Of a stretch of DNA of 64,000 nucleotides, positions 23,701 to 32,700 are shown in pieces (position 1 is the first letter of the stretch; every line of letters begins with the position of its first letter). Origin of the DNA: Bryobacterales bacterium (GTDB lineage Bacteria > Acidobacteriota > Terriglobia > Bryobacterales > Bryobacteraceae); the NCBI GenBank assembly GCA_963703295.1, contig OY969810.1, positions 682,001 to 746,000 on the forward strand. The letters are read 5' to 3'. A program made the position numbers.

Positions 23701-26700
23701 GTCATCATCCCTTTTGATTATGATCAGTTGCCCGAATCGCAGCGCCACACCGTAGTTCCAATCTGTATCGCCTCCGTAGATTGTCATGGGAACCCAATCG
23801 CGCCAATTTGGTTCGAGAAGGGTGTGGTTCCCGTCCAGGACCAACTGCGGAATATCGCCCGTTTCACGCTCGGTGATGTTCAACGTGTTTCAGAACTGGC
23901 CGAGATCACGGTTCACAAATTGTGGCAACGGCACGGCGAGGACGCCGGAGTGTGGCCTTGGCGGCGCGTCCTAGTGCGTGCCGCATGGGAAGCGCGGGAT
24001 CTGGCGGCCGGCAACTCCCGCTGGCACATTAGCCATACCGTCTCATTGGCGGTAGACACGCTGGAAGGTGACCTTTCAGGTACTTGTCCCACCCACCCAA
24101 AGCGCTACGACGAGATCTACCACGCCAAGTTGCTGCTCGATCTAATAGAACGTCGGATGGAAGAGGATCATCGCCACGGCATCCGCGAGGTATTCAAAAT
24201 GTTGCGCCAGGGCTACACTTGGGAGGAAGTCGCGGAGCGACTCGGTAGCGAACGACCCGAAGCCCTCAAGAAGCGGTTTTGGCGCTGGATAAAGCGCAAC
24301 TTTCCGCAAAACTCACAGCACAAATCTGTGCCTTCAAGACGGCCGCCCGTGCCATAATGACTGACTGGCGAGCATGATGAGCGAATCACCGGAAGAGAAG
24401 TGGGATCGCTTGCAACGCGAATACCAAACAGCGATACAGTCGTCTTATCCCAATCCGGAACGTCAAGGGTGTGTGGGAACCGATGTTCTGAGGGACCTGG
24501 CATTCCGTTCGACGAGATTCGAAGATTTAGAAGGGCACGAACGATGGAGACACGTCATCCATTGTGCACCGTGCTATCAAGAATATCTCGACCTGCGGCA
24601 ATCCTGTCGGCGGGGCGACGACATTAAACGCCGGGATTCCCAGTGAAATTCTCGACGAAGATCGCTTGGCGGTCCAAAAGACCAACGAACAAATAGGAAC
24701 GCCCAAAGGACCATCGCAAGCCGACTTGCTGCCGGCCCGATGCCCATCATGTTGAGCCTTTCGGATGCTTGTAGGTCACAAGTTCCACACTTTGCGTCCC
24801 CTATTGTCCCCGCCATTGCCTGTTCAGTAGGGGCGAAACATGAATGGTTCTGCGACCAACTGGTCATCAGTGAGCGCAACCGCCCGGCCCGCTATGACTG
24901 TCGAGCGCCAAGTCGAGGCGATGGGGTCAACGGTTTTTGAAATTGGCCTCTACGATCCGAACGCACGCGACGGGGAATCGGTGATGATCCCACGAATTTG
25001 GGATGCAGAAGCGATTACCAAAGCCGTACCGTGGTTGCGGTTTCAGAATCGCGAGGGACGAAATATCTACATTCGTCCTAGGGGAGAGCACGACCTTAGC
25101 ATGATTGACGACCTGACCATAGACGCGCTTTCGACGATGAAGGCGGCTGGCTTCGATCCTGCAGTCGTTGTCGAAACGTCTCCTGGCAACTACCAAGCTT
25201 GGTTGAAACACTCTGCACAACTGAGCCGTGAAACGAGCACGGCGGCCGCCCGAAAGCTGGCGGAGAAATTCGGCGGTGATCGCGGCGCAGCGGATTGGCG
25301 ACACTTTGGGCGTCTGAGCGGCTTTACTTTTACGTAAACACAAAATGTTTAGATGTGCACAGAGTGCCTTTCTTAGAGCCGTTTAATTATGTGGCGTTAT
25401 CGCATAATCTCTGCCATGATCGCTTGCATGTTTGTTCTGGGTGCTGAGGGTGAACAAGCGGGTCCCGCAACGAGCGGCCAGAGGCTGCGCCTGAAGGCCA
25501 CGGCGGACAGCCGATTTCCACTTCAGGTGCTGTGTGCTGACGGGGTACCGGAAATGCTTCTGACGGTGTATGCCGATGACTTGCGCCGCGCCTTGTCACC
25601 TGGCTCGGCCTACGCCTATGTGCGCGAGGTCGTTCTGTTCGCTAATTGGGCTCTGCAAGATTCTGTCGCTGCGGTTCAGGGATGGCGTATGTACGGTGAG
25701 CCTCGCGAAGTCCGGAATCTTGTGCAGGAATATCTGGCCAGAGTCGGCGAGTGCCGCATCACGCGACGGCCTGACACTTTGGGCATTCGAGCCGCATACG
25801 TGAATGCCGCCGATGGCAAGCGCATTAATGTTCGACTTCTGTTGGCTGCCCTCAAGCGATTGTATGAGGTTCTTGGTGACTCCGGCTTGTACCCGTTTGC
25901 GAATCCGCTAGTCCATGCCGATGCTAGGAGCGCGATAGCGGAGTTCCGAAGAGGAAACCGCACGGCGATGCTCGCCTTAGCGGGTCGACCACCGATGCCA
26001 CCGTCAAGCGGTGTTGACCCACCCGAGGACATACGACTCTCGGAAAACTACTTCCGCTTGGTTAGACGCGAGTGGCAGCCCCATTCCATCGATGATCCCG
26101 AGTTCCCCAGCCGCGTCTACGCTGCCGGGGAGCGCTTCGGCTGGGCGCTGCGGGAAGTCTGTGTGGCGCGAACTCTGCTCGAATCCGGCGCCAGAATTTC
26201 CGAGGTCTTCGATCTGACGGCGGCAGATTGGTCGGTAAGCACCTTCGGCAATCACTTCTCAGCGCGCAGCAAGGGCAGCTTCGGACAGCGGGTCAAAACA
26301 CTTGTCATCTCGAACCCCACCGCCAAGCTCTTGCGCCGCTATTTCGACGAGCACCGGCGGACACCCGGGCTGCAGCCTCGCACGGTTTCAGAGCTCGGCG
26401 GGATACAAAAGCTTTCCCCCGATGAACTGCTCCGCATTCGCATTTTCCTGACGCAAAGAGGAACACCGATGACGGCGGGGTTGTTTCGCGATCACTACTG
26501 GCGGCCTGCACTCCGCGCAGCCGGCCTGGAGGCCGATCCGCATACGTGTCGCCACTGGTTTGTGACCAATGCCATGCGGCACATCGAACAGTCCGCCACT
26601 GACGAAGGCGACAGGGCCCGTCACAAGCAGGAACTCATTCAGTACATGGCCTGGCGCAGTGGTGAGAGAACGCTGAAAGCCTACGAACACCTGGAGCGCG

Positions 26701-29700: not shown

Positions 29701-32700
29701 AACTTCCAAATAGCGAAGCAGGTTCCGATTGCGCGGGTTCTGGCGCACTACGGCATCCAACTGCATGCAACCGGTGGCGAACTGCGGGGGCAATGCCCGC
29801 TACCGGAACACACTTCTCGCGAAAGCCACAACAGCTTTTCGGTGAACACCGCCCGCAACGTCTGGTGCTGCCAGTCTCAATCGTGCATCCATGCCAGGGA
29901 TGGAGAACTTGGTGGAACCGTGCTGGACCTGGTAGCGAGGGTGGAGCGATGTTCGATCCGGGAGGCCGCCGTCAAACTGATAGAATGGTTCGGCGCCGGC
30001 GAGGTAGCCCCAGTCCGGGTGCAGGCGCCTTCGGCTTCTCCATCGAACCGTCCGCTCCATTTTCAACTCAACGGACTCGATCACTCCCATTCGTATCTGG
30101 AGAGCCGCGGCATCACGCCATTGACGGCGAGGACGCTTGGAATCGGATATTACAGCGGCCCCGGCATCATGCAGGGTCGCGTCGCAATTCCAGTGCACAA
30201 CACTAATCACGAACTGGTTGCTTACGCCGGGAGGTCGGTTGAAGGGGAGGATCCGAAGTATCGGTTTCCTCCGGGTTTTCATAAGAGCCAGGAGCTATTC
30301 TTATTGCACCGTGCGATGCACTCGGGGAACGACGCTGTGATTGTGGTTGAGGGCTTCTTTGATGCCGCGAAGGTCTGGCAAGCTGGACATCGCAACGTTA
30401 TCGCGCTGATGGGATCGAGCCTGTCGGACACTCAGGCCGGTTTCCTACAGAAGCATTTTCAAAAAGCGGTACTGATGCTGGACGGTGACACTGCCGGTCA
30501 GTCCGCGACCGCAGTGATCTCCCGACGGCTCGCACAGATCATGAATGTCGAGGCGATTCACCTGGGGCCGGACGTCCAGCCGGACCAACTGGCTTCAAGA
30601 GAAATAAAGGAAGCCTTGTCCGGCCATCTGCGGCTTGGAAAAGGCATGGAGCGCTGACTCTACAAAGTGCACCACTGTGGTGTACATCAACTATAATGAA
30701 TCTATGCAGAGTCGACGCAAACCAGCGACCAAAAGGAAGGCTGCTTCCGTACGTCAAAGCGTAACGATGCCGGCCGTCCTCGCGCGTGAAGTCCGGCGGG
30801 TGGCGAAGGAACGCAAAGTCACGATGAGCCGTGCCCTGGTGACGCTTGCCGAGCGAGGGGTGGAAGCGGAGGCGGCGGCCCGGGCCGGGCTGACGGCTGC
30901 CTATGACCAGTTTATGGCCGAGGGAGATCCTGCCAAAAAGAGCGAAGTTGGCGAAGATCTGATCCGAAGCATCTTCGGGAGAGCCGCGATTGCCGAAGAT
31001 CCGATTCATTAATCTGCCTCGCCCATTGTGGGAGCACATTCTGGAGCGCGTTGCCGAGCGGGCAATCTCCCTCGACGATTTGCAGCGACTGCGGAGCTGG
31101 GTGGTCACCGAACCGCAGGCGCCGGAAGGTGACTGGTACAAGGACTTTGGCTCCTTCGTGCTTTGTGGCACGGGAGAATACCCGAAGACGGTCCTGAAGA
31201 AGGGAATGAAGCCCTTCGGGACGCCGCTTTAGAAAATGGCCGCATATGGGAGAGCGCCACAAATCCAAGTCGCGTGCAGATATGATTGGGGCCAGAAAAG
31301 GCGAACTTTCGTAGAAAAAACCGGAAACCAAAATATCTCGACGCCGTTACCGGAATGTATCCCTACGTGAAGCTGATCGAAGCGACGGGCCGGGTTTATA
31401 CCGCCTCTGATCGCTTTCTGGCCGACTTGAAAACAGACCTCGAACGGCGGCAGGCGGAGAGGGAACGCCTAAAGCGGTATCTTATCCGCGCGGCCATTGC
31501 GCGAGCGGATCTGAAGAGCATTGATGTCTTTCGGGCGGATGCTCGTTACGGTGGCGATGGAACGAGAATCGATCTCGCCTTCGCCGTGTACGCGTTGTCC
31601 CATGATGCCGACCCCCAGCAGGTCGCCGATGCGATCAGGTCGCGGAATCTGTCCCATAAAGGAAACTCGCGGAGACAAGACGAATATGTTCAAAGGACCA
31701 TCAAGAAAGCCCTTGCTGCTCTCGACCGCGGGCGCTAACGTGCGGCGGTGGAGGCTGGAACGGTCCGCCGTTGAACATCCTGCGCCTGCGGCAGGACCAT
31801 CGTTCCTTGACGCTGCCGGGGCTGATCAAAAGCCTCATGTACGAAGCAGTACATAAAGAACAGCATGATTACCGCCCACCCTGCGAATAACCGCAAAAAT
31901 GTTTTGCGGCCAAGCAAATTCAACAAGACAACGAGAATCCACATGATCAACCTCTAGCGCAGAAGAGTACCAAGCCAAACGCCGCCGGAGAATAGCACAG
32001 TGCCGGCTAGCAATCCAACGGCAGACCAACGGATCAGTGCCGGGCGACGATGGGCCTCGTTCACCAAATGCACAATCTCTCTCGCTTTCAAGCCGGCACC
32101 ATGAATATCAGTGTGCAGACCCTGTTGAATCTGAGCCGCCGACTCCTTTACGGTTTGGGCCAACATAGTTCCCGCGCGTTTCTCAGCTTTCTGCATAGAT
32201 GCGTGGAAATCGGCGATCGTTTCGCGAATCTTCTCGTTGACGGCCTCAACAGCGGCGTTCAGAATGAGCTGGTTCATCGTTACCATTGCGATCGCTGGGT
32301 CGTCCGGCTTCAGAAAGAGGTTATGCCGCGCCGCAACCTCCGCGATCAGCCCTTGTACTTCGATGGATTCAATTCCCTTGGGCATCGGCATTACACCATC
32401 GCCAATTTGTCGAGTTGCTCAAAGATCTCGCGCCGAACAATCGCTAACCGCTGCTTTGACACGAGCGTGAAGTCGGCGTTTTGGATAGCTTCTTCAAAAG
32501 TCAATCGTCGCTCCAGCATTTGCCGCACATCGTCGCCGTAGGTGTGCGCATTTCTCTCACGTATCAAAACCGTGCCCACAAGTTTGGGGGCGTATTCCTC
32601 GGCAATCTTAAACTCTTCGAAGGTCTTTTGATCCTTAGTGACTTCACCGAAATATTCATTCAACCAAACGACGACATTCCTCTCGGACGTGGTCTGCGCC

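Follow-up and report, generated by a model that had tools for sequence, protein, structure and literature searches.

A tyrosine-recombinase element that splits RepB primase genes in conjugative elements carries a primase of a different fold

The locus and its host element

The window analysed here is a stretch of 64,000 nucleotides (contig OY969810.1, positions 682,001 to 746,000) from a Bryobacterales genome, assembly GCA_963703295.1. It holds a mobile element nested within an ICE, with the following features.

5658..51261: host ICE of the window copy, with tRNA-Ser, integrase, Trb/VirB cluster, cargo, repB, transfer region, helicase, TraF-like gene, SSB, coupling protein and ArdC; far boundary unmapped
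24840..25327, +: 5' half of the host ICE's RepB-type primase gene (PF16793, E 3e-27; PDB 3h20 residues 6-150, E 1e-30)
25328..31317, +: mobile element, 5,990 bp, delimited by the identity limits of its two copies and by end profiles fitted on relatives
25328..25342, +: left end, a variable 6-bp spacer followed by a conserved motif (aligned left ends)
25388..25406, +: left subterminal repeat of 19 bp, lying 60 bp inward from the end; predicted site of accessory binding
25389..26861, +: TnpA-like tyrosine recombinase, up to 490 aa (PF00589, E 3e-7)
26851..29226, +: TnpB-like large tyrosine recombinase, 791 aa (PF00589, E 2e-6), with a C-terminal cysteine cluster
29213..29686, +: TnpC-like small all-helical protein, 157 aa; third gene, kept across relatives (helical model, pLDDT 83)
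29683..30657, +: primase of 324 aa with CHC2 zinc finger and DnaG-type Toprim domain (PF01807, PF08275, PF13662; DnaG structures, E 5e-21)
30698..31232, +: overlapping gene pair, an RHH-like protein of 104 aa (RHH_5, E 0.004, below cut-off) and one of 80 aa that belongs to no known family
31245..31263, -: right subterminal repeat, a degenerate version of the left one in inverted orientation that stops 54 bp short of the right end
31318..31738, +: 3' half of the host RepB gene (PF22448, E 2e-4, below cut-off; PDB 3h20 residues 151-291, E 0.014)
31954..35809: host transfer region with TraM-like, TraL, TraK-like (by position) and RHH/MobA-like genes and a MOBP-type relaxase
G000:C1:3086382-3080393, -: second, identical copy of the element in the same genome

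The genome-wide survey's note had placed an element at 25325-31327 and two copies of 99.7% identity in the genome. Element and copies are there, with revised figures: window positions 25326-31317 match G000:C1:3086384-3080393 at 100% identity over 5,992 bp. Two of these matching bases are host bases common to both sites, so that the element itself spans 25328-31317 and measures 5,990 bp. Its six genes (490, 791 and 157 aa, the 324-aa primase, 104 and 80 aa) lie where the note had put them.

Both copies reside in ICE-like hosts with an integrase, VirB/Trb genes, TraL/TraM, a relaxase and a coupling protein. In the window's transfer region NCBIfam models recover TraL (E 6e-76), TraM (E 5e-6) and RlxS (E 1e-57), each below its own cut-off, and the relaxase is also found by Pfam. 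The type IV secretion DNA of the two hosts is only 65-68% alike, and the flanking repB halves share 59% and 47% amino-acid identity, which bears out the survey's observation that the flanks differ. These different flanks and the many independent loci described below rule out an assembly artefact.

According to the junction alignment, the window's repB is cut behind the second base of a Thr codon in the motif G-F-T-N-R-K. The 3' half restarts at the third base of this codon and stays open for 139 codons; on the solved RepB structure the two halves lie flush, the match of the second half being weak. The same codon of a RepB primase gene is split in two different ICEs, as the survey had stated, and site-specific targeting of this gene is strongly supported. 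An intact RepB is also encoded in this genome, near 7,212,600 of G000:C1. Comparison of the junctions reveals no target-site duplication at either copy. The resumption of the reading frame likewise extends to relatives: among 13 insertions whose two junctions are visible, repB rejoins in frame in 12, with zero bases gained or lost (the junction of locus L032 was judged by eye).

Core genes and remote kinship with Tn554

The adjacency of an ordinary and a large tyrosine recombinase, each with the catalytic R-H-R-Y residues, is a feature that the element shares with the Tn554 family, as is site-specific insertion without target duplication. In the TnpA-like protein R269, H385, R388 and Y432 are invariant in all 22 aligned sequences. 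Its annotated ATG falls within the left subterminal repeat, and for many relatives the alignment begins no earlier than residue 26-46, so the start of the 490-aa gene may be further down. The TnpB-like protein retains R485, H608, R611, H633 and Y642 as well as C698, C704, C710 and C713 in 29/29 sequences. Its catalytic domain and cysteine cluster remotely match TnpB of Tn6260 (E 4e-5, probability 71%), and it is likewise remotely similar to TnpB of the Tn553/Tn552-II/Tn7702 type (E 2e-5, probability 77%), these being the members of the group that were compared.

The other two proteins are more elusive. Against a 257-aa ORF of Tn6260 the TnpA-like protein reaches a BLASTP E of 0.09. A profile comparison with Tn554-family TnpA gave an E of 0.002 at a probability of 15%. 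The TnpC-like protein is compatible with DUF6262/TnpC in position, size and helical build, at a profile probability of 2-4%. Among 27 TnpC-like proteins, 2 gave a DUF6262 match, neither better than E 0.34, and a DUF6262 search of the element's own genome left the third gene unmatched. A Foldseek search with its model returned zero matches at E 0.001.

The distance from the left subterminal repeat to the left end is constant across target lineages. The two copies have an identical 6-bp spacer at the left end; this spacer resembles the host only in the lineage that targets DUF6094. Their right ends are identical too, and throughout the RepB lineage the elements finish alike on this side despite differing host flanks. 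The moving footprint of Tn554-type elements, whereby 6-7 bp from the left flank of the donor turn up at the right end of a new insertion, is not visible when the two copies are compared. We therefore retain the Tn554 kinship proposed by the survey as a remote one: layout and distant TnpB homology speak for it, the missing footprint against it.

Membership in two other groups was considered and rejected. SE elements and GInts are built on a core of four genes (intA, tfp, intB, srap or ginA-D), and here no gene lies between the two recombinases. RIT elements, in the excerpts of PMC10214605 that define them, have three tyrosine recombinases of 315-410 aa, against two of 490 and 791 aa in the present case.

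A lineage that targets RepB and carries a Toprim primase

With distinct elements defined by clustering TnpB at 97%, 18 are flanked by half of a RepB gene on at least one side, and all belong to one lineage (for one, L042, the RepB call is based on 8 codons only). They enter three divergent RepB types in constant orientation, at the boundary G-x-x/N-x-K. The Toprim primase is present in 16 of these 18, the other 2 being cut off by contig ends, and in 23 of the 27 loci of the lineage, the remaining four again being cut by contig ends. Outside this lineage it occurs in none of 69 loci. The link between RepB and Toprim goes back to a single evolutionary event, so these counts are not independent.

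The primase has the zinc finger, the catalytic core and the Toprim Glu and DxD of DnaG-type enzymes; the catalytic Glu and DxD are kept in 17/17 full-length copies and the zinc-finger motifs in 18/18 aligned ones. The gene is under purifying selection (dN/dS 0.10-0.17 in 10/10 pairs), and its tree broadly matches that of TnpB. At 324 aa the protein is presumably too short for the C-terminal helicase-binding domain of DnaG. Neither host ICE contains a further Toprim gene. Free homologs (37-49% identity) lie, at 6 of 7 loci, beside genes for replication initiators, ParA/B, RadC, SSB, relaxases or coupling proteins.

The small gene pair behind the primase is possibly a stabiliser resembling a toxin-antitoxin system. 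Both genes have a low dN/dS (0.12-0.19 and 0.02-0.12) and are kept in the closest sub-lineage. Atlas clusters offered no name for the 80-aa protein and, for the helix-turn-helix (HTH) cargo of related elements, only HTH_36 in 13% of one cluster.

Sister lineages and their spare target copies

Across the related loci there is one recombinase lineage per target gene. Sister lineages cut five further genes of ICE type. A whole spare of the broken gene is carried by 24 of 30 elements; 4 have no copy in view and 2 only pieces. By target, a whole copy of the family is present as follows.

Prok_Ub: 9/9
DUF932: 5/5
DUF6094: 4/5
ArdC: 5/7
Prok-E2_D: 1/2
sixth target: 0/2

Omitted from this count are L037 and L039, whose target is unclear, the L008 group, which has a copy but sits at other sites, and loci with the target or cargo slot off the contig. 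An element retrieved after the pattern had been noticed (L165, both ends visible) matches it. One element that carries a Prok-E2_D copy occupies three sites other than the target; together with the missing spares this implies that target replacement is not universal. With a view to possible immunity of the spares to insertion, they were compared with the host genes around the cut; they differ there, but they are divergent along their whole length. The three target trees are rough, and the row for L167 was wrongly labelled host by the script's rule.

The slot behind tnpC, which in the main layout holds the Toprim gene, is occupied in three other lineages and in L062 by an HTH gene (HTH_36, below cut-off) that is unrelated to their targets, which suggests that the family also carries helpers for itself. 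The ArdC lineage and the main Prok-E2_D lineage have neither gene in this position.

A probable substitute for the broken primase

What does the Toprim primase do? The survey read it as a substitute for the primase that the insertion breaks, and the whole copies in the sister lineages lend this indirect support. On these sequence comparisons we judge that the Toprim gene probably is such a substitute, one of a different fold. Extended to the family, the proposal becomes slightly less secure, though we still incline towards it: ICE-nesting transposons in which every lineage has settled on its own conserved gene in conjugative elements and makes good the loss with a spare, one lineage having a non-homologous spare, a DnaG/Toprim primase in place of the RepB type.

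The proposed course of events would be the following. A three-gene tyrosine-recombinase element enters the RepB primase gene in a conjugative element, always at the same codon; in such elements RepB would prime the transferred or excised ICE strand. After insertion the Toprim enzyme would take over priming, so that the host element still transfers and carries its passenger along. Movement may proceed by a circular intermediate made by TnpA, TnpB and TnpC, by analogy with Tn554-family elements. A side benefit could be that an unrelated primase lacks the target motif, and the element could not cut its own spare. RepB primases, as in RSF1010, are specific for their own priming hairpins, and a DnaG-type enzyme therefore need not serve the same site.

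The state of the broken gene counts against this reading. The repB halves are mostly still open, as is expected with recent or reversible insertions, and since they rejoin in frame, excision could restore RepB. With this, and with host DnaG perhaps priming in its place, the insertion need not make the ICE depend on the element as the survey had supposed. Decay of repB as a mark of long replacement finds little footing, with damage only in L001 (4 bp missing), L030 (a premature stop codon) and L004 (fragmented element, no 3' half found). Restoration by a duplicated 3' half can be set aside for this lineage: the window element contains no repB piece, and only L032 has, at its left end, an extra frameshifted piece resembling the host's C-terminal domain.

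Could the primase instead serve the element itself, by priming the second strand on a copied-out single-stranded circle, with the link to RepB due to shared ancestry only? Models for SE elements, in excerpts of PMC10214605, and for Tn552-II (PMC12486829) do invoke a single-stranded circle that needs replication. Moreover, the Toprim gene overlaps the tnpC stop, occupies the slot of the HTH gene of other lineages and is of one origin only. However, all lineages share the three core genes, yet those outside the RepB lineage do without Toprim, and two of them have no gene of either kind in the slot. In L032 and L104 the Toprim gene has moved from behind tnpC to ahead of tnpA and was nonetheless retained while other cargo turned over. 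Given the sister pattern, it also seems unlikely, if not by a formal test, that a primase as cargo fell by chance on the sole lineage that targets a primase. We regard this explanation as unlikely, while it is the strongest of the alternatives.

Less probable still is a passive cargo, acquired once from another mobile element, with the loss of RepB covered by host DnaG or by precise excision before transfer. The open halves that rejoin in frame, the free homologs on other mobile elements and the sister elements without a copy agree with it, and host DnaG may indeed be a source of primers for the ICE in place of RepB. It is difficult to reconcile with purifying selection and intact motifs across a depth of 55% TnpB identity, over which other cargo was exchanged, and SE elements, to judge from excerpts of PMC10214605, leave no empty site, which by analogy would argue against precise excision. 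A dual role, in which Toprim replaces RepB for the ICE and also helps the circle to replicate or persist, with the small pair as stabiliser as in a minimal satellite replicon, is very improbable: it would suit the coupling with tnpC, the conserved pair and the free homologs next to replication initiators, but the element has no initiator or helicase gene, and neither circle joint nor empty site appeared in four low-coverage, fragmentary contig sets, data that cannot show absence.

Known systems and implications

The survey had called both the target and the replacement strategy new for the Tn554 group. Replacement as such is already in print: Tn553, Tn552-II and Tn7702 of Staphylococcus, members of the Tn554 family, insert in a yolD-like gene of conjugative plasmids, and their internal copy of the target was proposed as a rescue (PMC12486829; excerpts of PMC10763498). 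They share with the Bryobacterales element the tnpA-tnpB-tnpC layout and insertion in a gene of a conjugative element. In contrast, they carry a homologous yolD copy instead of an unrelated primase, their target is not RepB, their TnpA and TnpC are only weakly similar and 6-7 bp move at their right end. What may be new is the substitute as an unrelated enzyme, for which the literature searched held no precedent, although article supplements could hold further cases.

Other systems are more distant. Tn554 and Tn6260 target radC rather than repB, and TnpA and TnpC of Tn6260 have no significant match here. The recA mobile element RME of Vibrio cholerae S24, as excerpted from PMC4405046, also inserts site-specifically in a gene and has a divergent copy aboard, but this copy is homologous and the target a chromosomal housekeeping gene, whereas the present element pairs an unrelated primase with an ICE target. 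SE elements and GInts are, in the excerpted descriptions, likewise tyrosine-recombinase elements nesting in ICEs and plasmids, whose final gene is small and which have a spacer of 6 bp on one side. They are set apart by their descriptions, with four core genes instead of three, and the sole sequence match is a weak one to NCBIfam GmtY (E 4e-4).

If the Toprim enzyme complements RepB, a transposon can offset the damage to its target by an unrelated enzyme and not just by a copy, and either of two primase folds can serve an ICE. This would be target replacement by analogy, with a selfish element driving the non-orthologous displacement of a conjugation primase, and it bears on the role of ICE and plasmid primases in transfer and on the specificity they need. 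The sister lineages in turn flag five poorly understood ICE-type genes as worth preserving (ArdC, DUF932, DUF6094 and two PRTRC proteins), and related recombinases with different fixed targets are a natural series in which to study how Tn554-type specificity changes.

The family reaches beyond these lineages. Three-gene relatives on enterobacterial and Bacillaceae plasmids are true homologs with the same layout (TnpB 25-28% and TnpA 29-37% identical over most of their length); they adjoin umuC-like or yolD-like genes, and the annotation of the three such regions viewed shows no spare of the target. Wider genome searches found a full-length relative in 2 of 401, 3 of 390 and 2 of 391 genomes, and viral contigs yielded one distant locus. 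Where close relatives are named, their hosts are mostly Acidobacteriota.

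An element in the primase genes of two ICEs

The window holds an ICE-like element adjoining a tRNA-Ser gene, with an integrase, a Trb/VirB cluster, a RepB-type primase gene, TraM/TraL, a relaxase, a coupling protein and ArdC. Its repB gene is split by an insert:

window 25328-31317: insert splitting repB, 5,990 bp

A second copy at G000:C1:3086384-3080393, on a contig of the same genome, interrupts repB in a different ICE and is identical over 5,992 bp, a span that counts two shared host bases. The flanking repB halves of the two copies are 59% and 47% alike, and they map end to end on a solved RepB, residues 6-150 and 151-291. 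Since two identical copies sit in unlike hosts, the sequences indicate that the element moved recently and site-specifically. The third repB gene of the genome is intact and unoccupied. Among 27 other repB loci the motif is unbroken in 19, and around these, out to about 1.5 kb, there is neither a Toprim gene nor one from the element.

Between the Trb ATPase gene and repB (window 18108-24646) lies ICE cargo: genes for an S41 peptidase and a TPR-CHAT protein, and two pairs of small genes that are alike and resemble sigma-factor-like/anti-sigma-like modules; the second ICE lacks it at the corresponding place. Window 36872-39616, between the relaxase gene and that of a 1,869-aa methylase/helicase, encodes a 721-aa protein that matches neither Pfam nor NCBIfam and a 192-aa protein with a putative phosphatase-like motif, possibly a defence module.

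Element anatomy and relatives

The element starts with genes for two tyrosine recombinases whose catalytic residues are invariant (tnpA, tnpB), a 157-aa protein predicted to be helical (tnpC-like) and a CHC2-Toprim primase, all four overlapping head to tail, followed by an RHH-like gene and an 80-aa gene. At L003:11850-12600, in a related locus, a two-gene pair that reads as toxin-antitoxin-like occupies the slot of the last two. Both ends carry a 19-bp subterminal repeat, 60 bp inward on the left and, in inverted orientation, 54 bp inward on the right. End profiles score 21-84 on real ends, most of which had served for training; five shuffles reach no more than 4. The insertion cuts the host between the second and third bases of a codon, and in 12 of the 13 insertions with both ends visible the host halves rejoin in frame without gain or loss of a base; the exception, L001, misses 4 bp. 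The left end of L032 was set by eye, one base off the profile rule. From it (L032:1914-2400) the host primase frame runs on into a frameshifted stretch that is 46-59% similar to the host's C-terminal domain, perhaps the decayed trace of a second repair strategy.

Ten related loci came from a genome scan, the best 80 of 252 confirmed from a metagenome scan and four from genome searches; with the two copies described here, these make 96 loci, which collapse at 97% TnpB identity into 70 distinct elements. The hosts named in the 10 genome records belong to the Acidobacteriota in 9 cases. The TnpB tree has one clade per target gene, with FastTree support of 1.0 for RepB, ArdC, DUF932 and DUF6094; Prok_Ub targets fall within one 1.0 clade and Prok-E2_D targets are split. 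Four short loci joined the RepB lineage by identity instead of tree.

A primase of another family

With metagenome loci being the best 80 of 252, a RepB half flanks one or both ends of 18 distinct elements, which cover three divergent RepB types at constant orientation and motif. Sixteen carry the Toprim gene, and the other two (L026, L033) end where it could lie. Counted by locus in the same sample, it occurs in 23/27 of the RepB lineage versus 0/69 outside, many of the latter being incomplete as well. It mostly follows tnpC and immediately precedes tnpA in L032 and L104. The catalytic Glu and DxD are kept in all 17 full-length copies, and dN/dS over 10 pairs is 0.10-0.17 (TnpB, 0.07-0.11); in L004 the Toprim copy is in pieces, as are the recombinase genes. 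The Toprim tree broadly matches that of TnpB, so the gene was gained once and kept. Of seven loci with free homologs (37-49%), six also hold replication-initiator, partition, RadC, SSB or transfer genes, which argues that the protein is a mobile-element primase.

The conserved cargo of the RepB lineage is a primase of another family than RepB. No whole RepB copy was seen in the elements of this lineage, nor is there a second Toprim gene in either host ICE. Elsewhere in the genome, a distant Toprim gene present in two identical copies (G000:C1:4534203-4535003 and 4693529-4694329) suggests a further duplicated mobile element.

Sister lineages and their spare copies

Does the Toprim primase stand in for the enzyme that the insertion breaks? 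The main argument for replacement comes from sister lineages, whose targets are other genes typical of conjugative elements, each cut at a fixed codon. Among 30 such elements (metagenome loci again the best 80 of 252; L037 and L039, of ambiguous target, lie outside the count), 24 carry a whole spare copy of the target family, two a partial one and four none.

Elements with a whole spare copy, by target
Prok_Ub: 9/9
DUF932: 5/5
DUF6094: 4/5, one partial
ArdC: 5/7, one remnant
Prok-E2_D: 1/2
sixth target, which we take to be Mom-like: 0/2

Eleven distinct elements have the spare copy on the inner side of their right end (L040, L097, L102, L103, L082, L086, L165, L093, L006, L051, L075/L076); for the others, position suggests that it lies inside the element. 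L165, fetched after the pattern was noticed, has host residues 27-216 on one side and 218-261 on the other of an element that holds a whole copy. In rough trees most spare copies form groups of their own, separate from the host alleles, which suggests that they have long been retained.

A counter-case is a 5.6-5.75-kb element with a whole Prok-E2_D copy at three unrelated sites (L008, L043, L044, L046, L047), whose right flanks are of three kinds, none of them the Prok-E2_D gene; these are either secondary sites or mixed assemblies. Elements that are nearly identical occur in the Prok-E2_D gene at L074:614 and at L076:723 and 7309; they point in opposite directions and their cut sites are offset by about 7 bp, a hint that a 7-bp overlap is retained next to the right end.

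Mechanism and alternatives

Most likely, the three core proteins would insert the element into the repB motif by way of a circle, the kind of route published for Tn552-II. The element would gain from riding the ICE only as long as transfer of the ICE continues; a lineage that destroys a primase beside transfer genes would therefore be selected to restore priming. We infer the role of RepB in these ICEs from the gene's place. The folds of RepB and DnaG primases are unrelated, and RSF1010 RepB acts specifically on its own priming sites. Conjugation systems are known to take plasmid primases as substrates (PMC8406263). On balance, the Toprim primase probably replaces the broken RepB.

The main rival, which we hold to be rather unlikely, is that it serves the element's own circle. 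Published models require replication of a single-stranded circle (PMC10214605; PMC12486829), and a conserved, target-unrelated HTH gene of 230-250 aa (HTH_36, below cut-off), possibly a replication helper, follows tnpC or the spare copy in 25 loci of the DUF932, DUF6094 and Prok_Ub lineages and L062. Examples are:

L093:5242-5997
L050:5301-6005
L083:9738-10472

That the Toprim gene is passive cargo is improbable, as it fits poorly with the selection on this gene.

Relation to Tn554

In its mode of action the element resembles Tn553, Tn552-II and Tn7702. These insert into yolD-like genes on conjugative plasmids and bring along a yolD copy, which has been proposed to make good the loss (PMC10763498; PMC12486829). 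The replacement strategy, which the genome-wide survey's note had held to be new, is therefore already known; new are the unrelated substitute enzyme and the six-target series. Searches of the open full-text literature brought up neither a primase-targeting Tn554-like element nor target replacement by an unrelated enzyme in title or abstract (subscription papers and supplements fall outside this scope).

Because TnpB is a remote homolog of its counterparts in Tn6260 and Tn552-II, TnpA and TnpC have no convincing Tn554-family match, and the moving right-end footprint of that family was not seen in the two copies or the aligned ends, we call the element Tn554-like and do not file it as a family member. 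Tn554-related elements are known outside Firmicutes (PMC3414803); the comparison also drew on PMC10214605, PMC6737455 and PMC4405046. Distant three-gene relatives (L105, L107, L163) adjoin umuC-like or yolD-like genes; downstream of them lies a CBASS system on a Proteus plasmid, or spore-germination genes on a Lysinibacillus plasmid.
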